Positions 1 through 21,278 of a DNA stretch of 49,209 nt are shown piece by piece. Every line of letters begins with the position of its first letter. Within the stretch, counting starts at the first letter, position 1. This DNA comes from Actinomycetales bacterium (GTDB lineage Bacteria > Actinomycetota > Actinomycetes > Actinomycetales > Quadrisphaeraceae), in assembly GCA_038243415.1 (NCBI GenBank), contig JBBSRD010000001.1, forward strand, positions 1 through 49,209, read 5' to 3'. The notes under the pieces were generated by a model, which saw nothing but the letters and a program-made list of their open reading frames with translations, was not told the origin of the DNA and ran no database searches. The position numbers and the translations under genes were made by a program.

Positions 1-562
1 CGCGGCGCCGAGCACCCAGTCCGCGGGCATCGGCTCCTGCTCGGAGACGGCGCGCTCGAGGCGGTCGCGGTCGAGGAAGCGCTCCAGCTCGGCGCGCCCC
101 GTGGCGGTGCGGCCCAGGACCGTGCGGCGGTAGGCCACGGTCGCGGGGCGGTAGTACCGGAAGGCGGTGTGCTGCAGCGACCCGTCGTCGTTGCGGATCT
201 GGGGCGCGACCATCCCGCAGGTGCCGTCGGCGTCCAGGTGCGCGGCGAGGACGTCGAGGCAGCCGTCGTCCACGCGGACGTCGGCGTTGAGGACCATCGC
301 GTACTCGTCCGTGCTGGCGAGCAGGCCGCGGTTGACCAGGGCCCCGAAGCCGACGTTGCGGGGGACCGGCACGTAGGTCACCGGCAGGCGGTGGTGGTCG
401 ACGCGCGGGCGCAGGTCCGGCTGGGCCTCGGAGTCGACGACGAAGACCTCGCCGAGACGCTCGTTGCACGCGTCCGCGAGGGCGTCGAGGCAGCGCAGGA
501 GGGTCTCGGGGGAGCGGTAGTGGGTGATGACGACGCTGACGCGCGGCGCAGGGCGAACCATG
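1..562 (-). CDS. Family 2 glycosyltransferase (partial; C-terminus lies beyond the left edge)
   Basis: Not in the ORF track because it runs off the edge. Reverse complement from ATG at 562 reads MVRPAPRVSVVITHYRSPETLLRCLDALADACNERLGEVFVVDSEAQPD...PRNVGFGALVNRGL...MVLNADVRVDDGCLDVL, a typical GT-A/GT2 N-terminal fold. Confidence 0.8.
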
Positions 563-638
563 ACGCTCCTTGCAGGCGGAGGTTGCTGTGTGTGCAGCAC
601 TGGTCTCTTTGGGTAACCCGCAACGTAGTCCGGACCGC

Positions 639-2090
639 TCACCGAGCGTGCGGGAAACGCCAAAGAAACTCACTTTGTGCCAGCACGTATCGACGCAGAG
701 TGCTCCAGCGGGACGGCCTGGTCCGCTCGGGAGCGCCGTCACGCCCGGCGACGTCGGCGAGGAAGCGCTCCAGGTCCGCGGGGGACCCGCTGGCGTGCAG
801 CGCGGAGGCGGGCTCGTCCGCGGCGTCGACGAAGGCCCGACGACCCCGTCCGCCGGCAGCGAGCGCGAGGTGCGCGGGCCGGGGGCCCAGCCCCACCCAG
901 GACCTCGCGAGCCGCCACGCGGGGGTCCGCCCGCCGGCGGTGACCAGCGGCGGGAACCGGGCGTCGACCACCCGCTGCAGCGCCGCGTCGAGCGCGCCGA
1001 CCGCGCGCTGCTGCAGCGACGTGCCCCGGCGCAGCGACGACGCGGTGCTCAGCGCCCCGGGGACGTCGAGGGCGCCCGGCCCGAGCATCGCCGCGGCGCG
1101 CACCAGCGTCCCGGCGACGGCGCGCGGGGCGCGCCAGTCCCTCGCTGCGGCGGCGACCTCGCGCCAGCCGCCGGGCGTGGAGGGGGCGGCGGCGGCCACG
1201 TCGGCCATCCACCCGAGCCGGTCGGCCCCGGACGCGGCGGCGTGGACGCACAGGTGCACCAGGGTGTCGGCGTCGCCGAGGGTGGGGACCGCTGCTCCGC
1301 CGACGTCCACGGCCCCGGAGCGCTCGAACAGCGCCGCCGTGGTGGTGCCGACCCCGCGCGAGCGCACCCGCGTGGAGGTCAGCGCCCAGTGCAGGTCGAC
1401 GACCGTCCCCGAGGGCGCGAGCAGGTGCACCTCGGAGGGCACCACGTCGGCGAGCAGGGTGAGGTTCACGTCGGCCAGGCGCCATCCCGCGCCGGTGGCC
1501 GCGGCGAGCGCGGCGCCCAGGTCGGCGGGGGCGACGAGCAGGTCGAGGTCGTTCCAGGTCCTCGCGTCCGGGCGGGCGTAGCGGGCGGCGACCGCGGGGC
1601 CCTTGACCACTTGCCAGGCGATCCCCGCGGCGTCCATGAGGGCGCGCCAGGCGAGGAGGTCCGAGAGGGTCCGCAGGTGGCGCTCCACCCCGGCGGCGTA
1701 GGCTCGCTCGGCCTCGGCGGCGACGTCGGGCGCCAGCCCGTCGCGCCGCTGCCAGAGGTGCCCGAGCACCCGGTGGTGGGCGCGCCAGGAGGAGGCGTCG
1801 ACGGTCGGCGGGGGCTCGAGCGCCAGCGCCGTGACGGCGTCCGCGAGGCGAGCACCGTGCTGAGGTCCGGGACGGGTCCCGAGGTGGGCCCCGACCAGCG
1901 GCGCGCCGGCCGCCGCGAGGCGCAGCAGCGGGTCCGACGGCTTCTCGGCGTCGACCTCGCGGGCCGCCTCCCCCTCCAGGACCACGCACCTCCCGAGGCG
2001 CGGGCTGAACAGGGTCACCTCGCCGTCCAGGCCGACCCACGTGGCCGGGCCCGCCCTCACGAGCCCGGCCCCCACCGACGCGGCCCTCAC
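639..2090 (-). CDS. Nucleotidyltransferase-family protein (NTP_transf_5-like), probable lasso tailoring enzyme
   Basis: This is the protein-like part of listed ORF 639..2675. The GTG at 2090 overlaps the upstream stop (GTGA). Motifs seen: ARTWNDLDLLVAPADLGAA, VVDLHWAL, HLCVHAAASGADRLGWMADV. The rest of the listed ORF upstream of 2090 is Arg/Pro-rich and overlaps the ABC gene. The start codon is uncertain. Confidence 0.7.
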   Translation of the reverse strand: MRAASVGAGLVRAGPATWVGLDGEVTLFSPRLGRCVVLEGEAAREVDAEKPSDPLLRLAAAGAPLVGAHLGTRPGPQHGARLADAVTALALEPPPTVDASSWRAHHRVLGHLWQRRDGLAPDVAAEAERAYAAGVERHLRTLSDLLAWRALMDAAGIAWQVVKGPAVAARYARPDARTWNDLDLLVAPADLGAALAAATGAGWRLADVNLTLLADVVPSEVHLLAPSGTVVDLHWALTSTRVRSRGVGTTTAALFERSGAVDVGGAAVPTLGDADTLVHLCVHAAASGADRLGWMADVAAAAPSTPGGWREVAAAARDWRAPRAVAGTLVRAAAMLGPGALDVPGALSTASSLRRGTSLQQRAVGALDAALQRVVDARFPPLVTAGGRTPAWRLARSWVGLGPRPAHLALAAGGRGRRAFVDAADEPASALHASGSPADLERFLADVAGRDGAPERTRPSRWSTLRRYVLAQSEFLWRFPHAR

Positions 2091-4018
2091 GCGTCGACCT
2101 GCTGGTACCCCGCGGCCTGCAGCATGAACAGCTCGGCGTACAGCCCACCCGCGGCCATGAGGGCGGCGTGGTCGCCGACCTCGACGACGCGGCCCTCGCG
2201 CAGCACGGCGATCCGGTCGGCGCTGCGCACCGACGCGAGCCGGTGGGTGATGAGCACGACGGTGCGCCCGGCGAGCAACGTGCGCACGTGCCCGAACAGC
2301 TCGGCCTCCGCGCGGGGGTCCAGGGCGGCGCTCGGCTCGTCGAGCAAGAGGACGGGGGCGTCGCGGTACAGCGCACGGGCCACCGCGAGGCGCTGCCACT
2401 GGCCGCCGGAGAGGTCCGCGCCGCCGGGGGCGAAGCGCGAGAGCTGGGTGTCCACGCCGCTCGGCAGGGCCGCGAGCTCCTCCTGGAGCCCCACCTGGGC
2501 GAGCGCGCGCGCCACGGCGGCCGCGCGCTCCTGCGGGTCGGGGCGGGCGCCGACGCGGCCGAGGGCCACGTTGTCGCTCGCGGACGTCTCCCACCGGACG
2601 AAGTCCTGGAAGGCCACGGCCACCTGCTCGCGCACGCTGGCCGGGTCGAGGTGGCGCAGGTCGGCGCCGTCCCACGTCACCGCGCCGGCGGTGGGCTCGA
2701 CGAGGCCCGCGAGGAGCTTCGCAAGGGTGGACTTGCCGCTGCCGTTCTCCCCGACCAGGGCGAGCACCTCGCCGCGGCGCAGCTCCAGGTCGACACCGCT
2801 CACCGCGTCGCGCACCGCGCCCTCGTACCGGTAGCCGGCGCCGCGGGCTGCCAGCGCCTCGCGCAGCGGTCCGGCAGCAGGCAGCGGCCCGGCTGGGGGC
2901 AGCGCGCCAGCCGTGGGCAGGGGGCCGTCGCGCACGTCGACGACGTCGTCGTCGTCAGGGTCCGGTGCCGCCCCCGCGTCGGCTCCGCCGCCGTAGCGGT
3001 GCCGGAACAGCGCGAGGTCCCCCAGGAACAGCGCGGCCTCGTGGACCTTCCCGGCGCTGGTCGACGTCGCCGCCACCCGCCCGGACAGGAACCGCACCGC
3101 GAGCAGCGCCGCGGCGGCCGTCCCCAGGCTGATCGCCCCGCCGGCGACCAGCAGCACCACGCCCACCATCGAGGCCGCCACCACCAGCCCCGTGGCCGCC
3201 GCGGCCACCACGCCGACGCGCTGCTGGCCGCTCGCGTGGGTGCGCAGCCGGGCCAGCGCCGCGGCGTCGGCCCCCAGCAGGGTGGTCAGGAGGTGGTCGA
3301 CGAGCCCGTAGGCGCGCACCTCCCCGGCCTGCTCGCGCCCGGTGAGGACCTGCTGGAGGTACAGGCGGCGCCGCAGGTGCGTGATCTCCGTCGTGGAGAA
3401 GGCGTGCTCCGCCCGCGACGTGCGCCGCGAGGCCCACACCACCGGCAGCGCGGCCAGCAGCAGCACCGGGGTGATCCACGGCGCGATCACCAGCACCGAG
3501 GCCGCCATCGCCGCGATGGCCACCAGGCCCACCAGCGTCGTCACCAGAGCCTGGGTGATCGCCATCGAGCGCCCGGCCGCGGCGCCGCGCACCCGCTGGA
3601 GCAGGTCGTAGAACGCCGGGGACTCGTACGTGGCCAGCGGCACGCGTCCCGCGACGGCGACGACCCCCTGGGTGGTCCGCTGGGTCACGTGCTCGCCGAG
3701 CACCCGCCCGGCCGGCCCCGCGAACGCCGCGAGCACCCCGGAGAGCAGCACCAGTCCGGCCATGAGGCCCACGCCGGCCAGCACCCTCACGCCCACGTCG
3801 AGCCCCGCGACCGAGACCCGCGCCCCGCCCGGGTCGGACAGGGCGTCGATCACGGTGCGGGCGGCGAAGACCTGCCCCACGGTCGCCAGCACCCCGACCG
3901 CCTGGACCCCCAGCACCAGGGCCGCCCGGCGCGGGTCCGCGGTGACCACGAGCACGACGGCCTCGCGCACCACGCTCAGGCGCTCGCGGGCCGAGCCTCT
4001 GGCCGGCGCAGGGCTCAC
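2087..4018 (-). CDS. ABC exporter, fused TMD-NBD (lasso D-type transporter)
   Basis: Walker A GENGSGKST, signature LSGGQWQRLAVARAL and Walker B VLLLDEPSAALD are present, with a hydrophobic multi-helix N-terminal half. The GTG at 4018 overlaps the kinase stop (GTGA). Confidence 0.85.
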   Translation of the reverse strand: MSPAPARGSARERLSVVREAVVLVVTADPRRAALVLGVQAVGVLATVGQVFAARTVIDALSDPGGARVSVAGLDVGVRVLAGVGLMAGLVLLSGVLAAFAGPAGRVLGEHVTQRTTQGVVAVAGRVPLATYESPAFYDLLQRVRGAAAGRSMAITQALVTTLVGLVAIAAMAASVLVIAPWITPVLLLAALPVVWASRRTSRAEHAFSTTEITHLRRRLYLQQVLTGREQAGEVRAYGLVDHLLTTLLGADAAALARLRTHASGQQRVGVVAAAATGLVVAASMVGVVLLVAGGAISLGTAAAALLAVRFLSGRVAATSTSAGKVHEAALFLGDLALFRHRYGGGADAGAAPDPDDDDVVDVRDGPLPTAGALPPAGPLPAAGPLREALAARGAGYRYEGAVRDAVSGVDLELRRGEVLALVGENGSGKSTLAKLLAGLVEPTAGAVTWDGADLRHLDPASVREQVAVAFQDFVRWETSASDNVALGRVGARPDPQERAAAVARALAQVGLQEELAALPSGVDTQLSRFAPGGADLSGGQWQRLAVARALYRDAPVLLLDEPSAALDPRAEAELFGHVRTLLAGRTVVLITHRLASVRSADRIAVLREGRVVEVGDHAALMAAGGLYAELFMLQAAGYQQVDA

Positions 4019-5055
4019 CGGGTCGCCGCCACGGCGTCGCGCAGGTCGACGGTGCCCGCTGGCTCGACGGTGCCCGCCGGCCCGACGACGGCAGCCCGCT
4101 CCACGAGGGCCCGCCCGCTCTCCGGCGGCCACGGCGGGCCCCACGGGAGCACCGCGCGGGCGACGGGCACCGAGCGCACCAGCGCGGACAACCCCTCGAA
4201 GCCGGCGCGGACCCACCCGGGGTGCTCCAGGCCGACCAGGCGCGGGTACCGGGAGAGCTCGAGGAGCGCCGCGGCTCCGGTGAGCGGCTCGAACCGGGGG
4301 CCGGCGGTCTGCCGGTCCGGGGTCGGGACGAGCACCTCGACGAGGGGGAGCGGGGCCCCCGTGTCACCGTCGTCGCGCGCGGCGCCGGCGTGGCCGCCGG
4401 GGATCAGCGCGGTGCGCCCGTCGGCGGTGGACCGTGACCGGGCCTGCCAGCCGCTCCGTGCGTCCTCGCCGGGCAGCGCCAGCCCGGCGGCGGCCGGGCG
4501 CAGGCGGGACTCCGTGGTCCCCGGCCAGCACACCCACCCCCCACCGTCCGGTGACGGCGCGACGCGCAGCACGTCGTCGGAGACCAGCCGGGCGCCGGCC
4601 CGGCACGCCAGCACCCCCGAGGTCGACTTGCCCATCCCGGAGGCGCCCACCATCGCGACGGCGCGCCCGTCCACCGCGTAGGCCGTGGCGTGCAGCACCA
4701 GGTGCCCCCGCGCCGTGAGCAGCGCGGTGGCGACGTAGCCGTTGAGCAGCACCGCCGCCATGCCCGGGTCGGTGCGAGGGTCCAGGTGCAGGTCCACCTC
4801 GGTGAGGCTGGTGTCGATGCGGGCGCTGGCGAGGCGGGGGAAGTGCAGCAGCAGGCCGCGCCCGTCGCGCACCAGCGCGAACCGCAGGTGGCTGCCGGCG
4901 TGCAGCCGCGCCAGGACCTCGCCGTCGGGGAGCCCGTCGGCCACCGGGGCCTCAGGGCGGAGGCGGACCAGGACGTCGGCCGGTTCGAGGCTCGGGCGGT
5001 CCAGGTGGAGGTCGACGTCGCTGTCGATGACGAGGCCGTGCGCCGCCACCCTCAC
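4015..5055 (-). CDS. HPr kinase-like serine kinase (lasso precursor kinase candidate)
   Basis: This is the protein-like C-terminal part of listed ORF 4015..6252. It has the P-loop AMVGASGMGKSTSG followed by LVSDDV. The GTG at 5055 overlaps the B2 stop (GTGA). Confidence 0.75.
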   Translation of the reverse strand: MRVAAHGLVIDSDVDLHLDRPSLEPADVLVRLRPEAPVADGLPDGEVLARLHAGSHLRFALVRDGRGLLLHFPRLASARIDTSLTEVDLHLDPRTDPGMAAVLLNGYVATALLTARGHLVLHATAYAVDGRAVAMVGASGMGKSTSGVLACRAGARLVSDDVLRVAPSPDGGGWVCWPGTTESRLRPAAAGLALPGEDARSGWQARSRSTADGRTALIPGGHAGAARDDGDTGAPLPLVEVLVPTPDRQTAGPRFEPLTGAAALLELSRYPRLVGLEHPGWVRAGFEGLSALVRSVPVARAVLPWGPPWPPESGRALVERAAVVGPAGTVEPAGTVDLRDAVAATR

Positions 5056-5564
5056 GGCGCGGCGCTCCCCACCCTCACGGCGGGGACCAGCGAGGTCAGA
5101 GGCGTGTACTCGTGGGCGCTCGCGTCCAGGGCGAGGCCGCCGACCTCCACCCACGCGTGCGCGCGCACGCGGGCCGCGTGGTCGCCGGGGGCGACGCCGA
5201 TCCGCACCACCGGGTCCAGGGAGCGCAGCCGCCGGGCGAGCACGAGGGAACGGCGCAGGCACATCGCGGAGCCGGGCGGTCCGTCCTGGCCGAGCGGCCA
5301 CCGGCGCATCACCGCGGCGGTGGCGCGCAGGGGCTCCGACGTCCAGCGCGGCAGGCGGGCGAGCGGGGCGTCCGGGGCGGGCTCGCCCGAGCCGTGCGAT
5401 GGGGCCGACGGCGCAGCGACGACCAGCCCGAGCGCGCGGGCGGTCTCCGGGAGGGAGCGCCGCCGCAGCGCGAGCTCCACGCGGGCGGCCGCGGCCAGGC
5501 TCAGCGCCAGGTGCCACGCGGGCAGGCGTCGCAGCGCCGGGAGGGGGTGGAGAGCGGTGGCCAT
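5052..5564 (-). CDS. Lasso peptide biosynthesis B2 protein (transglutaminase-like leader peptidase)
   Basis: The internal ATG at 5564 of listed ORF 5052..5729 shares one nucleotide with the cyclase stop (TGATG). Motifs seen: AMCLRRSLVLARRL (catalytic Cys) and VRAHAWVEVGG (His). Confidence 0.85.
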   Translation of the reverse strand: MATALHPLPALRRLPAWHLALSLAAAARVELALRRRSLPETARALGLVVAAPSAPSHGSGEPAPDAPLARLPRWTSEPLRATAAVMRRWPLGQDGPPGSAMCLRRSLVLARRLRSLDPVVRIGVAPGDHAARVRAHAWVEVGGLALDASAHEYTPLTSLVPAVRVGSAAP

Positions 5565-6931
5565 CACGCCACCGCCGCGACGGAAGGGACGGCGGGCGCG
5601 GCCCCGGGTGCGGTGCGGCTGTGGTGGGCCGCGACGCCGACGGGGCGGCGCGGCAGGCCGGCGTCGTGCAGCCACGCCGCCTGGAGGGCGAGCATCGTGC
5701 CCGCCCACGGGGCCTCGCTGAGCCAGCACGCCCGCAGCGCTGCAGGGTCGACGAGGCCGTCATCGAGGCCCTGTCCGCTCCACCGCTGGGCGAAGGCTCG
5801 CGCCGCCGGCCCGAACGTCGGGGTGTGGAACCGCGCCTTGGTGCTCCGGTGCAGCACGGCGTGCGGCAGCAGCCCGTCGAAGACGCGGACCATCGCCGAG
5901 GTGCGGTTGCCGAACCCGAAGGGGTGGCCCTCGGCCGCGAGCGCGGCGGTGAAGCGGGCGTCGAGCAGCGGGTGGGCCTCCACCGCTCCGGCCGCAGCAG
6001 CCAGCGCGCCCGAGGTGGCGAGGCCGAGGGCGAACCCGCGGTCGCGCCGGTGGGCGGCGAGGGCGTCCGCGAACAGCAGGGGCTTGCCGCGCTCGCCGGC
6101 ACGGTCCGTCGCGCGGGTCCGTGCCAGGCCGGCCGGGGTGAGCCAGCCGGGCGCCGGCAGGTCGCGCTCCCTGCGGCGCCGGGCGCCGGCCCGGACCGCC
6201 TCGGGCGCCAGCGCCACGGCCGCGGCGGGCCGGTTCGCGCGCAGCCGCCCACGGCGACGGCGCAGCAGCGCCAGGGGTGCGCAGCGCTGCCCGGCGATCA
6301 CCTCGTCGCCGCCCTGGCCCGTCAGCACCGCGGCGCCCCGGGCGAGCGCCCACATCGAGGTGAGGCTGTGCACCGGGGCCGACCAGAGCAGGCCGTGCTC
6401 GCGCAGGCCGGCGGTGGCGGTCTCCCCGAGGAGGTCGAAGTGCGGCGCCGAGGGCACCCGGACGTGCTCGACGGGGGTGCCGGCCGCGGCGAGGTGGTCG
6501 AGGACGGCGTGCTGCCACTCCCGCTCGTCGGCCTCGGGGTCGCCCGGGAAGTCGTGGGTCGCGGCGATCGGCGCGGGCAGGCCCTCACGGGCGGCGACGT
6601 GGGCGGCCAGCGCCAGCACCGCGGAGGAGTCGCGCCCGCCGGAGAACGTCACCACGCAGGGGCCGCGCTGCAGGTGCTCGAGCAGCACGCCCTCCAGGGC
6701 GGTGCGGGCGGTGCCGCGGGGTGCGGGGTCGCGAGCCAGGTCTCGGAGCCGGTTGGCGGGTCCCGAGGCGGGTCCGGCATGACCGAGGGTCGCCCCGGCG
6801 CCGCCGTCGTGCAGGTGGCCGAGCGCCACCTCGTCGCCGGTGGGGCGGTACAGGCCGTCGGCGTCCAGCGCGGAGGTGAGGTCGAGGCTGGTGAACCCCG
6901 ACGTGGGCACGGCCAGCGTCGTGGGGCTCAC
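5564..6931 (-). CDS. Asparagine synthetase-like lasso cyclase (C protein), short N-terminal domain
   Basis: PP-loop VVTFSGGRDSSAVL is present. The start overlaps the B1 stop (ATGA, 6928-6931). Only about 95 residues precede the PP-loop. Confidence 0.85.
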   Translation of the reverse strand: MSPTTLAVPTSGFTSLDLTSALDADGLYRPTGDEVALGHLHDGGAGATLGHAGPASGPANRLRDLARDPAPRGTARTALEGVLLEHLQRGPCVVTFSGGRDSSAVLALAAHVAAREGLPAPIAATHDFPGDPEADEREWQHAVLDHLAAAGTPVEHVRVPSAPHFDLLGETATAGLREHGLLWSAPVHSLTSMWALARGAAVLTGQGGDEVIAGQRCAPLALLRRRRGRLRANRPAAAVALAPEAVRAGARRRRERDLPAPGWLTPAGLARTRATDRAGERGKPLLFADALAAHRRDRGFALGLATSGALAAAAGAVEAHPLLDARFTAALAAEGHPFGFGNRTSAMVRVFDGLLPHAVLHRSTKARFHTPTFGPAARAFAQRWSGQGLDDGLVDPAALRACWLSEAPWAGTMLALQAAWLHDAGLPRRPVGVAAHHSRTAPGAAPAVPSVAAVA

Positions 6932-7194
6932 GGGGCGGTGGTCTCCAGCAGCTCGCGCTCTCGCAGGTCGGCGAGGAGGGCAGCGACGTCCGCGGAGGCC
7001 TGAGGCGCGTCGACGTCGTAATCGGCCAGCAGCAGGGCCTCCAGCTCGGAGGCGGTGCGCTCGCCGGTGGCCAGGGCGTCGACGAGGTCGGCGCCGGTGG
7101 CGTTGACCGCGAAGTACGTCGAGGTGCGGAGGTCCAGCAGCACGGCGTCCTCGCCGAGGCGCTGCCAGCTGAGGTCGGCGCTGCGCAGTCTCAC
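6928..7194 (-). CDS. PqqD-family RiPP recognition element (lasso B1)
   Basis: 88 aa: LSWQRLGEDAVLLDLRTSTYFAVNATGADLVDALATGERTASELEALLLADYDV. GTG start, with AGGAG 7 nt upstream. Confidence 0.85.
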   Translation of the reverse strand: MRLRSADLSWQRLGEDAVLLDLRTSTYFAVNATGADLVDALATGERTASELEALLLADYDVDAPQASADVAALLADLRERELLETTAP

Positions 7195-7240
7195 GTCGTC
7201 TCCTGGGGAGGCTCTTGAGCGGTTCTGGCGGGATGTTCAG

Positions 7241-7271
7241 CGAGGGGCGGCGCCTGTGGCGCCGCCCCTCG
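7241..7271 (-). terminator. Perfect hairpin CGAGGGGCGGCGCC-TGT-GGCGCCGCCCCTCG between the precursor genes and B1; probable partial terminator or attenuator
   Basis: 14-bp G+C stem with a 3-nt loop, read directly. It lies in the 92-nt gap between the A2 stop (7287) and the B1 start (7194). No U-tract follows it. Confidence 0.55.
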
Positions 7272-7286
7272 GGTGGTCGGCCGTGC

Positions 7287-7439
7287 TCAGCTGCCGGTGA
7301 ACCCGGTGAAGCCGTCGGGGTTGTTGACGTCGATCGGGGTACCGAAGGCGACGTCGACGTTGTTGGCGCCGCCGCCCTGCTGGGTCAGGGCTCGGACGGT
7401 TCCGACGGTGGTGATGCAGGGAGTCTCATAAATCTTCAT
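7287..7439 (-). CDS. Lasso precursor peptide A2 (50 aa): MKIYETPCITTVGTVRALTQ / QGGGANNVDVAFGTPIDVNNPDGFTGFTGS
   Basis: This is the last 50 codons of spurious listed ORF 7287..8417. ATG at 7439 has GAGGA 7 nt upstream. The leader fits Y-x-x-P-x-(L/I)-x3-G-x5-T-x, and the peptide ends in Ser. It sits immediately upstream of B1/C/B2. Confidence 0.8.
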   Translation of the reverse strand: MKIYETPCITTVGTVRALTQQGGGANNVDVAFGTPIDVNNPDGFTGFTGS

Positions 7440-7482
7440 GGCGTGTCCTCGGAGATCAGGGGAGTGCAGGGCGACAGCGGGG

Positions 7483-7626
7483 TCAGGTGTTGAACGGAGG
7501 CTCTTCAGGCCCGGTGGGCAGGAGGCTCGACCCTGAGCCGTCCTCGACTCCCAGCGGTCCGTCCAGCTGGGTGAGGGTGCGGACCGTGCCGGCCTTGATG
7601 AGGGACGGTGAGGCGTAGCGGCGCAT
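7483..7626 (-). CDS. Lasso precursor peptide A1 (47 aa): MRRYASPSLIKAGTVRTLTQ / LDGPLGVEDGSGSSLLPTGPEEPPFNT
   Basis: Not in the ORF track (too short); translated by hand. The leader aligns with A2 position by position (Y4, P7, L/I9, G13, TVR, LTQ). No clear Shine-Dalgarno sequence is present. The start lies 31 nt after the upstream GT stop. Confidence 0.7.
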   Translation of the reverse strand: MRRYASPSLIKAGTVRTLTQLDGPLGVEDGSGSSLLPTGPEEPPFNT

Positions 7627-7657
7627 GGGCCAGACGCTAGGTGACCGAGTGTCAGAT

Positions 7658-8650
7658 TCATGGGACGCGCGCCCTCGGTGTCGTCGCTGGTGCGTCCAGC
7701 CGAAGGGGCTCCGGATCCGCCGTGCGACGCACGGAACGAGAGGCCGCCTCGAGCAGCACCTCGCGGGTGAGCCGCTCCGGGGGGCAGCAGATCGCCAGCC
7801 CGCGCGCGTCGAGCTCCGCGGCGACCTGCAGCTGGTGGTCGTCGACGTGCTCGCCGTGCGCTGCGAGCCGGGGCACGAGCACCGGGCACAGCCCCGCGTC
7901 CATGGCGGTCAGGGCCGCGCCGGTGCCGGAGTGCGCGACCACCACGTCGGCGCGGTGGACGGCGGCGAGCATCTCGTCGTGCGGCACCGACTCGCGGGCG
8001 TCGATCGCGCGGCCAGTGGACTGCAGGCCGGCGGTGTCGGTGACGCCGGTCTGCCAGAGCACGTCCGCTCCGTCCAGCGCGGGCGCCGCAGCGTCCAGCA
8101 TCCGCCGGAAGCCGTAGGACTCCGTGGTGCCGAGGGTGACCACGGCCCGCCGCAGCGCCACGTCGGCGACGAGGCGAGCGGGCCCGGGCTCGAAGGAGTC
8201 GAAGATCGAGCCGGCGTAGCGCCACGGGCCGCCCGCCCACGCGGGGTACTGCGTGAACGTCGCGATGCGCGGCAGCGGACGCAGGATCCGCCCTGTCATG
8301 GAGGGCCCCGTCGCTCGGGCCGCGGTCTCGATGAAGTACGCGGGGATGCCGAGCGCGGCGGCGACGGGCAGGACGTTCACAGCGAGCGACGAGCCGGTGC
8401 TCACCACGGCGGTCCACCGCTTCGACGCGACGACCTTGGCGCCCAGCACCTGGTTACGCGCGATGTTCAGCACGTCCCGCGGAGCGGCGTAGGTGGCGAA
8501 GCGGACGTCCTCCCCCGCGAGCAGGCCGCGGCTCAGGCCGGTGTCGAAGGTGAGCCAGGTGCGCTCCTCGTCGGCCCAGGGCAGGCGGCCGGCGAGCTGG
8601 TGGAGCTGCTTGAGGTGTCCGCCGCCGGAGCACGCCAGGAGGATCGCCAC
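7658..8650 (-). CDS. Fused Alg14-like/Alg13-like (GT28 C-terminal domain) glycosyltransferase
   Basis: N-terminal half: VAILLACSGGGHLKQL...STGSSLAVNVLPVAAALGIPAYFIETAARATGPSMTGRIL (Alg14/PssD-like). C-terminal half: VVTLGTT...ADVVVAHSGTGAALTAMDAGLCPVLVPR...DDHQLQVAAEL (Alg13/Cps14G-like). I prefer the GTG at 8650, 1 nt after the upstream stop. The listed ORF start at 8719 is the alternative. Confidence 0.75.
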   Translation of the reverse strand: MAILLACSGGGHLKQLHQLAGRLPWADEERTWLTFDTGLSRGLLAGEDVRFATYAAPRDVLNIARNQVLGAKVVASKRWTAVVSTGSSLAVNVLPVAAALGIPAYFIETAARATGPSMTGRILRPLPRIATFTQYPAWAGGPWRYAGSIFDSFEPGPARLVADVALRRAVVTLGTTESYGFRRMLDAAAPALDGADVLWQTGVTDTAGLQSTGRAIDARESVPHDEMLAAVHRADVVVAHSGTGAALTAMDAGLCPVLVPRLAAHGEHVDDHQLQVAAELDARGLAICCPPERLTREVLLEAASRSVRRTADPEPLRLDAPATTPRARVP

Positions 8651-8651
8651 G

Positions 8652-9725
8652 TCAGCGGGCCGCCGTGTCGTGAGCAGCGCGGTTGGCGGTGACGTCGATG
8701 ACGGCGTCACGGCAGCCACGGGTCACCGGGCCGGAGTCCGAAGCGACCGTCAGCGGTGGTCGCGGCACGTCCGCCCATCCCTGCAGCCACAAGGACCGCT
8801 GTGCGAACGCGGTGCGCCAGGCGTGGTCGCCACCGGTGACCTTCTCGCGCAGCGCACGAAGGCCGACCCCGAGGGCGAGCATCGTGCGGCTCGCCGTCCA
8901 CGTCATGGCGCCGGCATCGCGCTGATAGAGCGTCGCCTTGCCCCGCATCACCATGAGGACCTTCGCCGCGGACGAGGACGTGGCTCCCTTGGCGTGGACG
9001 ACCGCCGCGGCGGGGGTGAACGAGGGCCGGTAGCCCGCTGTCCTGGCGCGCACGGAGAGGTCGACGTCCTCGCCGTACATGAAGAAGGACTCGTCGAAGC
9101 CGCCGAGCATCTCGAAGACCTCGCGGGGAGCCATGAGCAGGCACCCGGTGATGACGCCGACCTCGCGCACGGTGTCGTAGCCCCACCACCCCAGCGACTC
9201 GGGGTCGAACGTACGGGTCCCGGCGAAGACGGTGCTCAGCCCGGTGGCGAAGCAGGCCTGGCTCCACAGGGTCGGCTCGCCCCACACCGACGCGGGGTCG
9301 GGCTCACCGTCGGGGGTGAGGGTGCGGCCGCCGACGAGCCCGCGGGAGGGGTCCTCGTCGAGGAAGGCAGCGAGTGCGTCGACCGCACCGGGGAGCACCT
9401 CGGTGTCGGGGTTGAGGAACAGCACCCGCTCACCGCGGGCCAGCGACGCGCCGAGGTTGCAGGCCCTCCCGAAGCCGACGTTCTGCTCCAGCTCGATAAG
9501 GCGCAGGCGCGTGAGGTCAGCGGTCAGCGTCTCGCGCAGCGGAGGCATCGAGGCGTTGTCGACGAGGACCACCTCATGGGTGAGGGCCGGCTCTCCCTCG
9601 CCGGCCAGGGAGGCCAGGCAGCGGTCCAGCCACTGGGGGGCGCCATAGCCGACGACGACGATCGAGACCTCGACGGCCGGTGCCTGACCACCGGTCGGGC
9701 CGGTCTCTGCCGGGGGGTGAACCAT
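8652..9725 (-). CDS. Family 2 glycosyltransferase
   Basis: VSIVVVGYGAPQWLDRCLASL...VLVDNAS...NVGFGRACNLG...FLNPDTEV...FFMYGEDVDLS. I prefer the ATG at 9725, which has GGAGAGGAG upstream. The listed start 9734 is a GTG. Confidence 0.85.
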   Translation of the reverse strand: MVHPPAETGPTGGQAPAVEVSIVVVGYGAPQWLDRCLASLAGEGEPALTHEVVLVDNASMPPLRETLTADLTRLRLIELEQNVGFGRACNLGASLARGERVLFLNPDTEVLPGAVDALAAFLDEDPSRGLVGGRTLTPDGEPDPASVWGEPTLWSQACFATGLSTVFAGTRTFDPESLGWWGYDTVREVGVITGCLLMAPREVFEMLGGFDESFFMYGEDVDLSVRARTAGYRPSFTPAAAVVHAKGATSSSAAKVLMVMRGKATLYQRDAGAMTWTASRTMLALGVGLRALREKVTGGDHAWRTAFAQRSLWLQGWADVPRPPLTVASDSGPVTRGCRDAVIDVTANRAAHDTAAR

Positions 9726-9844
9726 CCGAAACACTCCTCTCCACAGCGCATGGGCCGTCGCTTGGTTGCAGAGTGCGACGGATTGTCACAGTGAAACAGG
9801 CGCAGGCGGGCACGGGGAGCAGACCGGAACACTGCCGCAGCAGG

Positions 9845-9985
9845 CCACCGGACTCCACCAGGGTCGGCGGCACAGGCGTCGCAAGCTGCGGTGAAGGCGG
9901 GGACCACAGCGATGAAGGCGCGACACTGCTCAGCGTTGAGCGTCGTGAAGTCCCGATCGAAGCGTGGCGTCGACTCGTACTTCAC
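9845..9985 (-). pseudogene. Possible truncated toxin gene of a toxin-antitoxin pair
   Basis: The GTG at 9985 overlaps the upstream stop (GTGA). The first ~47 codons (VKYESTPRFDRDFTTLNAEQCRAFIAVVPAFTAACDACAADPGG) look protein-like. After that, listed ORF 9524..9985 becomes Arg/Ser/Pro junk and runs into the GT2 gene. Confidence 0.3.
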
Positions 9986-10269
9986 GCCGGGGCCGGGCCG
10001 TGGCTGCCCGCAGCCTCTTCTCGTCCTGCGTGTTCGTCGAGCTCTTTCAGGTGCTCGACGAACACGTCGGACGACTCGTGCCGGACCACCTCGCCCCGCT
10101 GCAGGTGCTCCTCGACCCGGTGCTCACCGCCCTGCCAGCGCTCGCTCCAGAACCATGCCTGGTCTGCCGGGACTGCAGCGGTGGGACGTACCTCCAGCAC
10201 GCCGTCCTCGCGCTCGATGATCTCCACCTGCGCGCCGGGCCGGTCAAGGCCGTAGCCCCGGATCGCCAC
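9982..10269 (-). CDS. AbrB/SpoVT-like antitoxin-type small protein (N-terminus uncertain or truncated)
   Basis: VAIRGYGLDRPGAQVEIIEREDGVLEVRP...AWFWSERWQGGEHRVEEHLQRGEVVRHESSDVFVEHLKELD. The looped-hinge-like segment plus the WFW..W motif recall MazE/AbrB-type antitoxins. The GTG at 10269 is the first canonical in-frame start after the upstream gene. Confidence 0.4.
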   Translation of the reverse strand: MAIRGYGLDRPGAQVEIIEREDGVLEVRPTAAVPADQAWFWSERWQGGEHRVEEHLQRGEVVRHESSDVFVEHLKELDEHAGREEAAGSHGPAPA

Positions 10270-10321
10270 GCACGCGACGGCGTCGAGCCGAGCCAGCAGC
10301 TGGTCCGGCCCTGCGCTCCGG

Positions 10322-11188
10322 TCAGCTCCACCCGTTCTTGCCCGTGGCCAGCCGGCGCACCCGCCGCCTGGCATGGATGAACTTTCGCCGCCACCCGATG
10401 GAGTGGCGCAGGTCGAGCGTGGCGACCTGCACGTGAGCAGCGTCGTTCCTCGTCTGTGCCAGCCACTCAGCCAGGGTGGTGGCGCCCGTCGCCCTCGCCG
10501 AGAGCGGCATCGCCGCCTGGTAGGCGGCCTCGTCCGTGAAGGCTGTCAGCGGATGACGAGGATCGTCGAGGTGCTCCTCGGCGACGAGCGGCAACGGCCA
10601 CCCGTTGACGTAGCCGGCCTTCGCGGCCTGCAGGCACCAGCCGACGAAGCTCAGCCCGGGGCGTAGCGGACCCAGCTCGCGGACGAGGTCGCGGCGCAGC
10701 ATGTGCCCGCTGCCCTGCACCCAGTGGTTGCGCAGCAGGCGGACACCGTGAACCTCGGCGATCTTGGGCGAGGCGCGCACCTCGTCCCAGTCCTCGGGCA
10801 GGAACCGCCACGATCCCAGCACCCCGAGACCGTCCCAGGCGTCCAGCGCGCTCGACAGGTGCTCGACCCAGCCGGGCTCCATCAGCGAGTCGTCGTCGAC
10901 CTTGGAGACGAACCGCCCCTCCGCCTCCGTCCACACCCAGTTGATCGCCGCCTGCAGGCCCAGGTTCTCGGGGGAGTGGTGGAAGCGGTGCAGCCGCGGG
11001 TGGTCCAGGTGCGGTTCGATGACGTCGAGCACCTCGCGGTCGTCCCCGTTGTGCCACACCCACACCCGCCCGTCCGCCGGCATCGTGGAGAGCAGCCGCG
11101 GCAGCGACAGCGAGGTGTAGCGGGGACGGTCGTGGGTGATCAGCACGACGTCGAGCCCGGTCCCCGGTGTGGCGGGGCCCGGGCTCAT
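10322..11188 (-). CDS. GT-A fold (GT2-like) glycosyltransferase
   Basis: The internal ATG at 11188 overlaps the upstream stop (ATGA). LDVVLITHDRPRYTSLSLPRLL...VSKVDDDSLMEPGW. Confidence 0.7.
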   Translation of the reverse strand: MSPGPATPGTGLDVVLITHDRPRYTSLSLPRLLSTMPADGRVWVWHNGDDREVLDVIEPHLDHPRLHRFHHSPENLGLQAAINWVWTEAEGRFVSKVDDDSLMEPGWVEHLSSALDAWDGLGVLGSWRFLPEDWDEVRASPKIAEVHGVRLLRNHWVQGSGHMLRRDLVRELGPLRPGLSFVGWCLQAAKAGYVNGWPLPLVAEEHLDDPRHPLTAFTDEAAYQAAMPLSARATGATTLAEWLAQTRNDAAHVQVATLDLRHSIGWRRKFIHARRRVRRLATGKNGWS

Positions 11189-12036
11189 GACGCCACCCGG
11201 CTGGAGCGATCGTGGTTCCAGCCGATGACCGCGCCGCCAGCCAGCGCGAGCCGGAGCCGGACCAGCACGGTGAGCGCGACGAAGGAGCCCACCCACGGCC
11301 ACGTCCGGGGCGAGCGCAGGAGAGGCAGGAGCGCCCGCGCCCCGGTCACCCCTGGCTGGGGGACGAGCGCTATGCCGCTCGCAGCGAGCTGCACGTTGCC
11401 GGTGCGGCCGCGCAGCGCGCGCGCGACGTACGAGCGCACCGTGCGCGGCGGACGGACCTCATAGGTGCCCTCGCTCGTCGTGCGCTCCCCTGGGGCGAAG
11501 GAGCGGCGGACGTAGTCGTCATCGGCTATCACGTCGGGGAAGGGAGCGATGCGGGCGTGGCCCGCCTCGGACACGGCGTACACGCCCGAGCCGAGGTAGC
11601 CCTCGCGCGTCACCGGCAGAGAGGCCCACGCCCGGTAGTGCCAGGCCACCACGGGGGAGACCCCGTCAGTGACGAGCCGGACGTGCGGGGCACCTGCGAG
11701 CGCGGGGCCAGCCCTGAGGGCGGCGGCGAGGGTCCGGGCATCGCGGGTGCTGAGGACCGCGTCGGCGTCGAGGTAGATGCGCGGGAACGACGATGCCGCG
11801 GCGTCGCCGGCGTTGATCGCACCGATCTTCCCGGGCTCTGGCAGCTCGATGACCCGGACGTCGCGGTGACGCCGGGCGCGCTCGGCGGTGTCGTCGCTGC
11901 AGGCGTTGGCGGCGACGACCACCTCGAGCTCGCCGGGCTCCGCGTCCGCCATCAAGGCAGCGAGACAGCGGTCGATGACCTCCGCCTCGTCATGGGCAGG
12001 CACGATCACGGACATCTCGCTCACCACACGGTTCAT
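11185..12036 (-). CDS. Family 2 glycosyltransferase
   Basis: MSVIVPAHDEAEVIDRCLAAL...VVVAANACSDDTAE...GKIGAINAGD...IYLDADAVL. Confidence 0.85.
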   Translation of the reverse strand: MNRVVSEMSVIVPAHDEAEVIDRCLAALMADAEPGELEVVVAANACSDDTAERARRHRDVRVIELPEPGKIGAINAGDAAASSFPRIYLDADAVLSTRDARTLAAALRAGPALAGAPHVRLVTDGVSPVVAWHYRAWASLPVTREGYLGSGVYAVSEAGHARIAPFPDVIADDDYVRRSFAPGERTTSEGTYEVRPPRTVRSYVARALRGRTGNVQLAASGIALVPQPGVTGARALLPLLRSPRTWPWVGSFVALTVLVRLRLALAGGAVIGWNHDRSSRVAS

Positions 12037-12122
12037 GCTAGTGACTCTGTGTGGCGAGTGCGGGCGCTCGCGGGTATTGGGTCAGGGCTCTCCGAAGCAT
12101 CGAGAGGTCAGTCCCAGACACC

Positions 12123-13274
12123 TCAGCGGGCGCGGGCGGTGGGGACCTCCGAGCCGCTGCCCGTGAACCGGTTTCCGCCGGCCAGCAGGACCGAGCGCGG
12201 GGACAGCACCTGGCCGTACCGGCTCGTCGTCCCGAACGTGTTGTTGCGGATGACGAGGTCGGTCGCGGTGATGTCGGCGCGCACGTTGAGCGTGTAGTTC
12301 CCGCCGTCGAGGTGGTTGTCCTCGATCAGGACGCGTTCGACCTTGCGGCCCCCGGTCTCAGAGCCCAGCATGATCGCGGCGTTGTTGTAGTCCCCGCGGC
12401 TGGTGTTGTTCGCGTCGAGCGTGTTGCCCCGGACGACGACGTCGGTCGCGGACGTGGTCTGCACGGCGTCGGAGTGCAGCGTCCGGATGCGGACCAGGTC
12501 GTGGATCCAGCTGTTCTCGATGAGCACCCGGTGGCCGAAGCGGGCGCCGTCGGCGCAGCCGTGGACGTTCACCCTGCGCAGGGTGTACCGGCTGTACCCG
12601 ACACAGACCGCGGTGGAGCCGCGCCCGTCGATCTCGACGTCCTCCACGGTCAGGCGGTCGCCGGAGTCGGCGATCGCGACGGCGACCTGGCCCTCGGCTG
12701 AGGCGCACCTGATGCGGCTGGAGCGGATGGTCACGTCTTTCGCCCTCACCTGGACGCACCCGTCGATGTCCAGACCCTCGACCACGGCTCCGTCCTGCGT
12801 GATGCTGATCGAGCCCGAGGGCGCGAGCCTGGTCCCGGCGGGGACGCCGGTGCTCGCGGCTCCGGCGCGCGAGCCGGGTGCTCCGGGATCGACCGCCCTG
12901 AACCACCGCGTGACGACACGGGTCCCGCGGTCGGGCGTCTCGATGACCGTCCGGAGCTTCGTGAGGCCGCGGAGCCCCGACAGGTCGACGTCGGCGCTCG
13001 CCGTGAACGCCCCCCGATACGGCTCGATGCTGGTGTCCTCCGCCAGCGCCCGGCCGTCGACCGTGAACTGCACGCGATCGGCGGCCGTGCTGGAGATCGC
13101 GTCGAGGCGCACGAGCCCGGCCGGCACGCTGGACAGCGTGATGCTCGACCCGGCGTAGCGCACCTGGTCGGGGCTCGCGGCCTCGGCGTGGGCGGGGACG
13201 CTGACCGCGGACAGGGCGAGCGCGACGGCACCGACGAGGACGAGACGGCGCACCGCGGCGCGGGCAGCGGTCAC
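12123..13274 (-). CDS. Secreted right-handed beta-helix protein, paralog 1 (candidate glycanase, lyase or epimerase)
   Basis: The GTG at 13274 overlaps the upstream stop. Signal peptide VTAARAAVRRLVLVGAVALALSAVSVPAHA. Shared core: RYTLRRVNVHGCADGARFGHRVLIENSWIHDL...LHSDAVQTTSA...NNAAIMLGSETG...DNHLDGGNYTLNVR. Confidence 0.7.
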   Translation of the reverse strand: MTAARAAVRRLVLVGAVALALSAVSVPAHAEAASPDQVRYAGSSITLSSVPAGLVRLDAISSTAADRVQFTVDGRALAEDTSIEPYRGAFTASADVDLSGLRGLTKLRTVIETPDRGTRVVTRWFRAVDPGAPGSRAGAASTGVPAGTRLAPSGSISITQDGAVVEGLDIDGCVQVRAKDVTIRSSRIRCASAEGQVAVAIADSGDRLTVEDVEIDGRGSTAVCVGYSRYTLRRVNVHGCADGARFGHRVLIENSWIHDLVRIRTLHSDAVQTTSATDVVVRGNTLDANNTSRGDYNNAAIMLGSETGGRKVERVLIEDNHLDGGNYTLNVRADITATDLVIRNNTFGTTSRYGQVLSPRSVLLAGGNRFTGSGSEVPTARAR

Positions 13275-14443: not shown

Positions 14444-14554
14444 GGGGTCCTCCGTCGATGGTGATCGCGAGGGCCATCGACATGAGATCACGCACCGTGA
14501 ACCCTGGTCGGTCATCTCCACCCGTTCGGTGCAAGCGCCACCTAGCCTGGCCGG

Positions 14555-16764: not shown

Positions 16765-16854
16765 GCCCGTCGCCTGGCCGTCGCTCCCACGGTGAGGGAT
16801 GGTACCGATCGTCACCATCCGTGGTTGGCAGATGCCAGGATGTGACGAACCCCC

Positions 16855-18611: not shown

Positions 18612-18625
18612 ACGCCCCCGCCGAC

Positions 18626-21217: not shown

Positions 21218-21278
21218 TGCTCCTTCACGACGTCGTGGCTCGGAGCGCCACGACGAGAGGAACGGGAGGACGCACGGC

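Follow-up and report, generated by a model that had tools for sequence, protein, structure and literature searches.

A lasso peptide cluster with a putative HprK-like kinase and NTP_transf_5-family tailoring pair in a high-GC actinobacterium

Our analysis suggests that positions 639–5055 of the window (the whole stretch of DNA analysed, 49,209 nucleotides) most likely encode the half of a paeninodin/pseudomycoidin-type lasso peptide pathway that handles tailoring and export in a high-GC actinobacterium. The cluster to which this region belongs is a high-GC actinobacterial lasso cluster with a known pair of enzymes, an HprK-like kinase (K) and a nucleotidyltransferase-family protein (N), and is an as yet uncharacterised representative of a known system, with a few unusual details. 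Because this tailoring pair is located in a lasso cluster, the peptides are very probably phosphorylated at the last residue and then decorated further. Gene identities, catalytic motifs, translational coupling, the linkage of K and N across lasso clusters and the invariant Ser (or Thr) at the end of the precursors were established in the analysis. Current understanding is not overturned. The chemistry predicted for the cluster is the one known from paeninodin and pseudomycoidin. In the literature that we searched, phosphorylated or phospho-glycosylated lasso peptides were characterised from Bacillota and Proteobacteria only and no actinobacterial example was found. The actinobacteria in which the K/N module is widespread are a convenient place to look for new enzymes and substrates, and the presence of Ser- and Thr-ended precursors beside a single kinase provides a natural experiment on kinase specificity.

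Organization of the cluster and its two precursors

Open reading frame calls place eight genes on the minus strand in the order A1-A2-B1-C-B2-K-D-N (Table 1), and this order is kept in the closest relatives (loci L034–L040). Every junction from B1 through N, six genes in all, is a 4-nt GTGA overlap. B2 directly precedes K, while the ABC exporter D sits between K and N. The sequence-only reading had placed both tailoring genes between B2 and the end of the operon; both are indeed present there on the minus strand, but N is perhaps not the final gene of the operon, as a GT2 glycosyltransferase gene with its own ribosome-binding site starts a short distance downstream on the same strand.

Table 1. 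Features of the lasso cluster and its flanks, in window coordinates.
Feature	Coordinates	Strand	Description
GT2 glycosyltransferase downstream of N	1..561	-	Runs off window; Pfam Glycos_transf_2 E=3e-16; own AAGGAG ribosome-binding site; 77 nt after N stop
N, NTP_transf_5 nucleotidyltransferase-fold protein, 483 aa	639..2090	-	Pfam domain 1080-1781; D181xD183 in WNDLDLLV, residues 179-186 (1533-1556)
Conserved part of N extension, residues 14-65	1896..2051	-	GPATWVGLDGEVTLFSPRLGRCVVLEGEAAREV...DPLLRLAA
D, ABC exporter, permease and ATPase fused, 643 aa	2087..4018	-	Pfam ABC_tran E=5e-33; MsbA-like NCBIfam matches; GTGA overlaps with K and N
K, HprK-like P-loop peptide kinase, 346 aa	4015..5055	-	H122 (4690-4692); P-loop GASGMGKST, residues 137-145 (4621-4647); D160-D161 (4573-4578)
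B2, transglutaminase-like leader peptidase, ~170 aa	5052..5567	-	NCBIfam lasso_biosyn_B2 43.8 bits vs 33-bit cut-off; Pfam Transglut_core3 match
C, Asn-synthase-like lasso macrolactam cyclase, 455 aa	5564..6931	-	Pfam Asn_synthase E=6.5e-18; GTGA overlap with B1
B1, PqqD-type RiPP recognition element, 88 aa	6928..7194	-	Pfam PqqD E=7.8e-16; NCBIfam lasso_PqqD_Strm E=6e-14
Perfect 14-bp G+C hairpin	7241..7271	-	Right after A2 stop codon; CGAGGGGCGGCGCC-ACA-GGCGCCGCCCCUCG
A2 precursor, 50 aa	7287..7439	-	Leader MKIYETPCITTVGTVRALTQ; predicted core QGGGANNVDVAFGTPIDVNNPDGFTGFTGS; C-terminal Ser (...FTGFTGS); NCBIfam lasso matches
A1 precursor, 47 aa	7483..7626	-	Leader MRRYASPSLIKAGTVRTLTQ; predicted core LDGPLGVEDGSGSSLLPTGPEEPPFNT; C-terminal Thr (...PFNT)
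GT28_C (MurG/Alg13-like) glycosyltransferase	7658..8719	-	Pfam Glyco_tran_28_C E=9e-11; ends 31 nt upstream of A1
GT2 glycosyltransferase flanking cluster	8652-9734	-	

The hairpin that follows A2 is probably an attenuator or partial terminator separating the precursor genes from the enzyme genes, and the 106-nt region bearing it has a z-score of -2.9 against shuffles. An Rfam scan of the window gave no match, and scans of positions 1-10500 found neither promoters nor terminators.

Translation of the two precursor frames agrees with the earlier observation that one precursor is Ser-ended and the other Thr-ended. A1 scores 19.8 bits with NCBIfam lasso_leader_L3 (cut-off 19 bits) and contains the YxxPx[L/I]...T(-2) leader motif, and A2 has a GAGGA ribosome-binding site 7 nt upstream. 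Complete A2 orthologues in L034, L035 (two copies), L036, L038 and L040 all terminate in Ser, and the A1-type orthologues in L034, L035 and L040 all terminate in Thr. Calculated monoisotopic masses of the unmodified lasso peptides are 2663.260 Da (A1) and 2906.311 Da (A2).

Kinase K and its likely substrates

K carries the lasso-kinase motif, comprising H122, G137xSGxGKS144 and D160-D161. Residues H122, G137, G140, G142, K143, D160 and D161 are invariant in 26 K homologues and S144 is nearly so (at least 90%). Spacing of the motif equals that of BsfK from Bradymonas sediminis (H148-G163-G166-G168-K169-S170-D186-D187), whose catalytic residues H148...D187 have been validated by mutagenesis (PMC10368454). 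With BsfK, K shares 29% identity over 211 aa (E=1e-9), and with the paeninodin-type kinase of Gorillibacterium 28% over 240 aa (L026; E=1e-12). A profile of the 26 homologues matches HPr kinase/phosphorylase structures across the H...P-loop...DD region (E=4.5e-6), and the AlphaFold model of K (pLDDT 91, pTM 0.89) has a two-domain PEPCK/HprK-superfamily fold.

HPr kinase/phosphorylase (HprK/P) has in common with K the P-loop domain of this superfamily together with the His, Walker A and Asp-Asp residues, but its N-terminal domain is different and the K gene is located in a RiPP operon. K does not reach the curated thresholds of HPr kinase/phosphorylase proper: Pfam Hpr_kinase_C gives E=1e-3 and 19.1 bits (cut-off 33.3 bits), TIGR00679 gives 18.8 bits against a threshold of 240 bits, and the NCBIfam HprK-related A and B matches are weak and below their curated cut-offs. 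As judged from these comparisons, K is HprK-like and not an orthologue of HprK/P. A role of K and N in anti-phage defence was also considered and rejected, PADLOC giving no match.

Motif, homology, location in a lasso cluster and the Ser-ended precursor A2 all place K in the class of lasso-precursor kinases (PadeK/ThcoK/PsmK/SyanK/BsfK), while the Thr end of A1 departs from the Ser-end rule of the subclass acting on C-terminal Ser. [quoted passage not shown]

Homologues of K were found in 23 actinobacterial loci, 20 of which are long enough to be judged. A lasso cluster is present in all 20 and an N homologue in 19 of them; an N homologue also occurs in a Gemmatimonadaceae locus (L029). The K/N module, accompanied in every case by Ser-ended precursors, is found in Pseudonocardiaceae, Nocardioides, Isoptericola, Cellulosimicrobium and their relatives. 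Outside the small clade of this cluster, the precursors predicted from related K loci end in Ser without exception (23/23, of which 22 are distinct sequences, from 20 loci) and none ends in Thr. Comparative support for C-terminal phosphorylation is strong, and the kinase part of the earlier proposal gains from the complete motif, the BsfK-like spacing, the homology and the Ser-ended precursors of the relatives.

It had been asked earlier whether one kinase serves both precursors or only A2 is modified, and this question can now be narrowed. Related loci commonly have a single K for two divergent precursors (L003, L009 and L011). The published relatives disagree on the acceptance of Thr: BsfK phosphorylates an S3T variant efficiently (PMC10368454), and LppK, the kinase of linear polyphosphorylated peptides (LPP), phosphorylates neither S3T nor S3Y variants (PMC13381572). 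A BsfK/LppK-style phosphorylation of Ser3 itself is excluded here, since core position 3 is Gly in both A1 and A2 and offers no Ser or Thr. The A1-type precursors in the four loci carrying them end in FNT, ITT, ITT and TTT, and the core of A1 in this cluster is almost unrelated to those of the other three loci. Because the Thr end is nevertheless kept in all four, the terminal hydroxyl of A1-type precursors appears to be under selection. A1 would probably be modified by K as well.

Alternatively, only A2 with its Ser end might be a substrate of K, and A1 peptides would be matured by B1, B2 and C and exported plain, giving one modified and one plain peptide per operon. Since LppK is inactive on the S3T variant, A1 may indeed stay unmodified; reviews also state that PadeK and ThcoK specifically recognise C-terminal Ser, and the uniform Ser ends of the 23 precursors outside the clade point the same way. 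However, the retention of Thr in near-unrelated A1-type cores and the activity of BsfK on its S3T variant argue against restriction to A2, which we regard as conceivable but the less probable outcome.

Protein N and the neighbouring glycosyltransferases

N matches Pfam NTP_transf_5 (PF14907) over residues 104-337 with E=2.1e-32 and 113.1 bits (cut-off 31.2 bits). D181 and D183 are invariant among 17 N homologues, and the DxD lies within β-strand 181-186 of the AlphaFold model, the core of which (residues 76-471) is confident (pTM 0.79). N resembles PsmN-like enzymes in its PF14907 score above the gathering threshold, its DxD and its co-occurrence with an HprK-like kinase. Its link to PsmN consists of the common Pfam family and the same weak structural match to ANT(2'')-Ia, the template also reported for PsmN (PMC6993621). 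PsmN has been reported to give additions of +162 Da (hexose) that depend on prior phosphorylation and are lost in the D134A/D136A mutant (PMC6993621). The nucleotidyl or glycosyl tailoring that had been proposed for N is thus upheld as to family membership and to co-occurrence with K in 19/20 loci, while its chemistry, presumably transfer of hexose onto the phosphate, follows the PsmN precedent only.

The fold of N also allows for another activity. A fold search of the PDB returned Pol-β-fold matches to the adenylyltransferases ANT(2'')-Ia and LnuA and to FKRP, a CDP-ribitol phosphotransferase, and it is possible that N is a true nucleotidyltransferase or NDP-X phosphotransferase which adds NMP or an alcohol-phosphate to the (phospho)peptide or makes an activated donor for another enzyme. 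The nucleotidyltransferase fold and DxD site of N are in line with such a possibility, and the authors of the pseudomycoidin study left open a role of PsmN as maker of a substrate for a host glycosyltransferase (PMC6993621). Similarly, in a heterologous host no effect was detected for LppN, an N-family protein with an HprK-like kinase partner, and its authors suspect an external partner (PMC13381572). In view of this result, N may depend on an additional partner or donor, or may catalyse a reaction that is not a glycosylation. However, all of the fold matches are weak (E at least 0.02; query-normalised TM-score ≤0.27) and hence no substrate can be inferred from them, and the sole experimental read-out for the family is the PsmN-dependent +162 Da on a phosphopeptide, which the D134A/D136A mutation abolishes. 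We therefore consider a nucleotidyl- or phosphotransferase activity of N doubtful, and hexose transfer is preferred.

An unusual feature of N is its N-terminal extension. Rather than the ~60 residues estimated earlier, ~75 residues precede the confidently folded core and ~103 precede the Pfam match. The AlphaFold model has pLDDT <50 for residues 1-74, and no fold could be assigned to this segment. The extension is conserved in P0121-P0125 and L039 and is missing from the 370-400-aa members of the family, and a phmmer search of 1.84 billion proteins gave only a single, close representative cluster. The extension is thus real and specific to the closest relatives. It weakly resembles PqqD: hhalign against 32 B1/PqqD sequences gives a score of 18.2 (P=0.005; probability only 7%), in register with the first strands, whereas column shuffles give 9.6 ± 2.2 and none of 60 reaches 18.2. 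The PqqD profile and Pfam gave no match to the extension at E values up to 10. Given the missing Pfam match, the low pLDDT and the low hhalign probability, identity with a RiPP recognition element (RRE) was demoted to an idea of low probability.

The glycosyltransferases around the cluster raise the question of whether they contribute to tailoring. The three flanking genes of Table 1 could build a glycan on the phosphopeptides, either with N or replacing it. They lie on the same strand as the cluster and close to its ends, and the arrangement recurs in L034, L035, L036, L037 and L040, with the same downstream GT2 neighbour in L034 and L037. In L020, a distant Nocardioides lasso cluster with K and N, the gene right after D encodes a GT2 of 43% identity, and Zyubko et al. 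noted that a cyanobacterial lasso cluster with a kinase also encodes a recognisable glycosyltransferase (PMC6993621). However, locus L041 keeps the same glycosyltransferase-rich polysaccharide locus, ended by a 68%-identical GT28 and followed by prs and glmU-like genes, and has no lasso genes. The GT28 is also far commoner than K (1283 homologues, widespread in Actinomycetota, against 129), an adjacent glycosyltransferase is missing from most of the distant K/N lasso loci, and further genes in the window region (Wzy, Wzx, GT4 and acetyltransferase) are of the kinds usually seen in a cell-wall/exopolysaccharide locus. A part for the flanking genes in tailoring is therefore improbable and was largely rejected on account of L041 and the K/N loci lacking such neighbours. 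We assign the GT28 to the polysaccharide locus, and the downstream GT2 probably belongs there as well, outside the lasso pathway.

Proposed pathway and comparison with known systems

In the pathway that we propose, B1 would bind the linear precursors at their common YxxPx[L/I]...T(-2) leader, and K, with ATP or a different NTP as donor, would phosphorylate the C-terminal residue on its side-chain hydroxyl, at Ser50 in A2 and probably at Thr47 in A1, maybe more than once. B2 would then take off the leader and C would close a nine-residue ring onto Asp9. N, with its Pol-β fold and DxD metal site, would add a further group to the phosphate, which may be a hexose by analogy with PsmN, and D would export the finished product. 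We infer the whole of this chemistry, as well as the order of the steps, the acceptance of Thr by K and the group added by N. A more elaborate version, in which one K serves both precursor classes, the extension of N is a degenerate RRE-like leader-binding module and N uses sugar donors of the polysaccharide locus for a phosphodiester-linked glycan on two lasso peptides, is very unlikely to hold in all its parts. If it did, A1-type peptides would be the first natural Thr-ended substrates of a lasso kinase and N would act on leader-bearing phosphopeptides.

The pseudomycoidin cluster of Bacillus pseudomycoides (psmCAKB1B2ND) likewise combines an HprK-like kinase, an NTP_transf_5-type protein, split B1/B2, C and an ABC exporter in one operon. 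Both clusters have the DD in K and the DxD in N, the pseudomycoidin precursor is Ser-ended like A2, and its ring is also of nine residues (Ala1-Glu9 there, residue 1-Asp9 predicted here). However, pseudomycoidin comes from Bacillota and this cluster from Actinomycetota, the gene order differs (C-A-K-B1-B2-N-D against A-A-B1-C-B2-K-D-N), and only here are two precursor classes present, one of them Thr-ended, together with an N that carries an additional segment of ~75 residues at its N-terminus.

Paeninodin-type systems (PadeK and ThcoK, with the Gorillibacterium L026 cluster as proxy) have a homologous kinase with the same H...GxSGxGKS...DD motif, a Ser-ended precursor and a ring from residue 1 to Asp9, as predicted here. 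The precursor core in L026 is AGPGKAFPD...NHS. Unlike the present cluster, these systems lack an N gene, follow the order C-A-K-B1-B2-D and have a single precursor.

BsfK is homologous to K with identical catalytic spacing, its cluster also contains an N gene, and the stimulation of the kinase by B1 in that system can be counted as a further likeness. In contrast to the C-terminal modification predicted here, BsfK phosphorylates Ser3 of the core, a position that is neither Ser nor Thr in A1 and A2. BsfA has a C-terminal Asp, with Ile at the -2 position, whereas A1 and A2 both have Thr at -2.

The LPP clusters (LppK, LppN; Nat Commun 2026, PMC13381572) possess the same module of HprK-like kinase, NTP transferase, RRE and MsbA-like exporter. 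Unlike this cluster, they have neither a cyclase nor B2 and use an SpI-type leader peptidase instead; they also belong to Bacillota, and their kinase acts on Ser3 and refuses Thr. LPP clusters have likewise been described inside glycosyltransferase-rich loci (PMC13381572).

Gene set and organization of the lasso cluster

A tailoring module of the paeninodin/pseudomycoidin type, comprising a kinase, a nucleotidyltransferase-family enzyme and an exporter, is present in this actinobacterial lasso cluster. In the literature searched, characterised examples of such tailoring come from Bacillota and Proteobacteria only, and the present cluster differs from them in its phylum (Actinomycetota), its gene order, a second, Thr-terminated class of precursor and an N-terminal extension of the nucleotidyltransferase-fold protein N. 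Gene boundaries were obtained by start-codon analysis and families by Pfam and NCBIfam profile searches. The lasso genes all lie on the minus strand of the window, whose G+C content is ~75%, and the six genes from B1 to N are translationally coupled since a 4-nt GTGA overlap occurs at each junction. The P-loop (GASGMGKST) and the nucleotidyltransferase motif (WNDLDLLV) pointed out in the sequence-only reading are located at residues 137–145 of the kinase K (positions 4621–4647) and 179–186 of N (1533–1556). The observation is confirmed, and its interpretation, C-terminal phosphorylation and further nucleotidyl or glycosyl tailoring of the lasso peptides, is supported as a prediction. Directly 3′ of the A2 stop and ahead of B1, a perfect 14-bp G+C hairpin (CGAGGGGCGGCGCC-ACA-GGCGCCGCCCCUCG, 7241–7271, minus strand) is present, which is probably an attenuator setting the precursor:enzyme ratio.

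Lasso genes and surrounding polysaccharide genes in the window
Feature	Coordinates	Strand	Assignment
A1	7626-7483	-	precursor, 47 aa
A2	7439-7287	-	precursor, 50 aa
B1	7194-6928	-	PqqD, E=8e-16
C	6931-5564	-	Asn_synthase, E=7e-18
B2	5567-5052	-	lasso_biosyn_B2, score exceeds cut-off
K	5055-4015	-	kinase, 346 aa
D	4018-2087	-	ABC exporter
N	2090-639	-	NTP_transf_5, 483 aa
GT2	1-561		
GT28_C	7658-8719		
GT2	8652-9734		
GT2	10322-11458		
GT2	11185-12081		
Wzy-like	15358-17553		
Hexapeptide acyltransferase	18566-19237		
GT4	19131-20285		
GT2	20156-21217		
Wzx-type flippase	21057-22775		

The kinase and the C-terminal residue of the precursors

HPr kinase/phosphorylase (HprK/P) is a member of the PEP-carboxykinase fold superfamily. 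Direct scanning of K with the Pfam HPr-kinase model gives a weak score of 19.1 bits, below the 33.3-bit cut-off. K is not an HprK/P orthologue. A profile built from 26 homologues of K matches HPr kinase/phosphorylase structures across the His-P-loop-AspAsp stretch (E=4.5e-6), and AlphaFold predicts K with confidence (pLDDT 91, pTM 0.89), the model matching the PEP-carboxykinase fold. Mutagenesis of the Bradymonas sediminis kinase BsfK has validated the residue set H148-G163-G166-G168-K169-S170-D186-D187 (PMC10368454). The set H122-G137-G140-G142-K143-S144-D160-D161 of K has identical spacing and is invariant across the 26 homologues except for S144, which is nearly so. K is 29% identical to BsfK (E=1e-9) and 28% identical (E=1e-12) to a Gorillibacterium kinase encoded in a C-A-K-B1-B2-D cluster, whose precursor, MKKEWKQPELEVLSVQMTM followed by AGPGKAFPD...NHS, is plainly paeninodin-like. 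Every feature of the lasso-kinase family that can be recognised in sequence is present in K.

A homologue scan covering a single genome of each species yielded 33 loci, 23 of them from Actinomycetota. In all 20 actinobacterial loci with adequate flanking DNA, K is accompanied by B1 (the PqqD-type RRE), B2 (leader peptidase), C (cyclase) and an ABC exporter, and in 19 of these 20 also by a homologue of N. By leader-motif searches, 23 precursors (22 distinct) were recovered from 20 loci, every one of which ends in Ser. The kinases PadeK and ThcoK of paeninodin-type systems act on the C-terminal residue (PMC9266682), and the pseudomycoidin kinase PsmK likewise targets it (PMC6993621). The invariant terminal Ser is the strongest single evidence that the clade of K acts in the same manner. 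Together with motif spacing and lasso context, it supports, as a prediction, the earlier proposal that K phosphorylates the C-terminus. It has been reported that BsfK (PMC10368454) and LppK, the kinase of linear polyphosphorylated peptides (PMC13381572), target Ser3 instead; this possibility is ruled out here by Gly at core position 3 in both A1 and A2. More remotely related kinases from Proteobacteria and Gemmatimonadota (L024, L029, L030) accompany precursors which are not Ser-terminated, one of which (...TAGGSSGKSE...) has Ser close to the core start; these are consistent with a separate, BsfK-like Ser3 class.

The closest relatives (L034–L040) are metagenomic contigs in which gene order is kept and K is 63–75% identical. 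All six complete A2-type copies outside the window (two in L035, one each in L034, L036, L038 and L040) have Gly-Ser at the C-terminus. The A1 type is represented in the window, L034, L035 and L040, with the endings FNT, ITT, ITT and TTT, respectively. The core of the window A1 shows almost no relationship to those of the other three and yet the terminal Thr is kept, which is suggestive of selection for a terminal hydroxyl. There is one K per locus, and in L003, L009 and L011 a single K stands beside two divergent Ser-terminated precursors, so that one kinase for several precursors is normal in this family. An S3T variant was efficiently phosphorylated by BsfK (PMC10368454) but not by LppK (PMC13381572). 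On balance, we lean towards A1 also being a substrate of K. The L040 A1-type gene (~11220–11400) is split by a frameshift (sequencing error or pseudogene), and its frame still ends ...GTTT. L009 (Cellulosimicrobium arenosum, 14339–17192) has two C genes beside its two very different precursors.

Core position 9 is Asp or Glu in most precursors of the K loci, and the cores of A1 (LDGPLGVED) and A2 (QGGGANNVD) fit a nine-residue ring as in paeninodin and pseudomycoidin. The Thr(-2) rule yields unusual first core residues (window 7287–7626), Leu1 in A1 and Gln1 in A2 (Lys1 in one L035 copy). Because the GGG following residue 1 is conserved in the A2 type while residue 1 itself varies, ring closure between Gly1 and Asp8, which puts Thr at position -3, is an alternative.

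The nucleotidyltransferase-fold protein and its N-terminal extension

N scores 113 bits against Pfam NTP_transf_5 (cut-off 31.2 bits). D181 and D183, invariant across 17 homologues, are the counterparts of D134/D136 in the pseudomycoidin enzyme PsmN, whose mutation abolishes hexosylation (PMC6993621). Every PsmN-like family trait recognisable at the sequence level is present in N. In the AlphaFold model (pTM 0.79), residues 76–471 are confidently predicted. The PDB matches of this model are Pol-beta-fold enzymes (LnuA, ANT(2'')-Ia, FKRP), ANT(2'')-Ia being the template reported for PsmN (PMC6993621). All are weak (E of at least 0.02), so the chemistry of N is read from the pseudomycoidin precedent alone. 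By this analogy, N would add hexose to the phosphate. The authors of the PsmN study could not rule out that PsmN just supplies substrate to a host glycosyltransferase (PMC6993621), and deletion of LppN, the corresponding linear-peptide enzyme, was without effect upon heterologous expression (PMC13381572).

Family members are typically 370–400 aa long; an additional N-terminal segment is found in N and in the five proteins closest to it. The sequence-only reading had noticed this segment but put it at about 60 residues; its length is ~75. It contains a conserved block (GPATWVGLDGEVTLFSPRLGRCV.LEG.AA...DPL.RLA, residues 14–65) followed by a variable linker, and it is translated, because the GTGA-coupled start is conserved. 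The extension is, by these comparisons, real and lineage-specific. A Pfam search with it gave zero matches, just one representative cluster among 1.84 billion proteins matches it, and the structure prediction proposed earlier for this region gave pLDDT <50 (AlphaFold). Profile-profile alignment with 32 B1/PqqD proteins places it in register with the first RRE strands at an hhalign probability of just 7%; it scores 18.2, whereas column shuffles give 9.6 ± 2.2 (0/60 reach 18.2). Fusions of N with B2 have been reported in Bacillota (PMC8498205), so a leader-binding add-on to N, which is our speculation for this extension, would not be unprecedented.

Polysaccharide genes around the cluster

The lasso cluster sits inside a polysaccharide-biosynthesis region (a cell-wall or exopolysaccharide locus), and the same setting is found in L034, L035, L037 and L040. 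In L034 (1657–2960) and L040 (8555–9858), a toxin-antitoxin-like RES-domain and HTH_17 pair lies between GT2 and GT28, which is absent from the corresponding place in the window. A further locus, L041, has the same glycosyltransferase array ending in a 68%-identical GT28; prs and glmU-like genes come next and lasso genes are absent, so the lasso cluster looks like an insertion beside GT28. GT28 homologues number 1283 across Actinomycetota, and adjacent glycosyltransferases are absent from most distant K/N lasso loci. These observations, together with L041, disfavour the flanking glycosyltransferases as lasso tailoring enzymes and assign them best to the polysaccharide locus. An exception is L020 (Nocardioides sp. 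YIM 152315, 12348–15035), a distantly related K/N lasso cluster in which a GT2 43% identical to the window GT2 at 8652–9734 directly follows D and is adjoined by a homologue of the GT2 at 11185–12081; some functional link of this GT2 type with K/N lasso clusters could exist.
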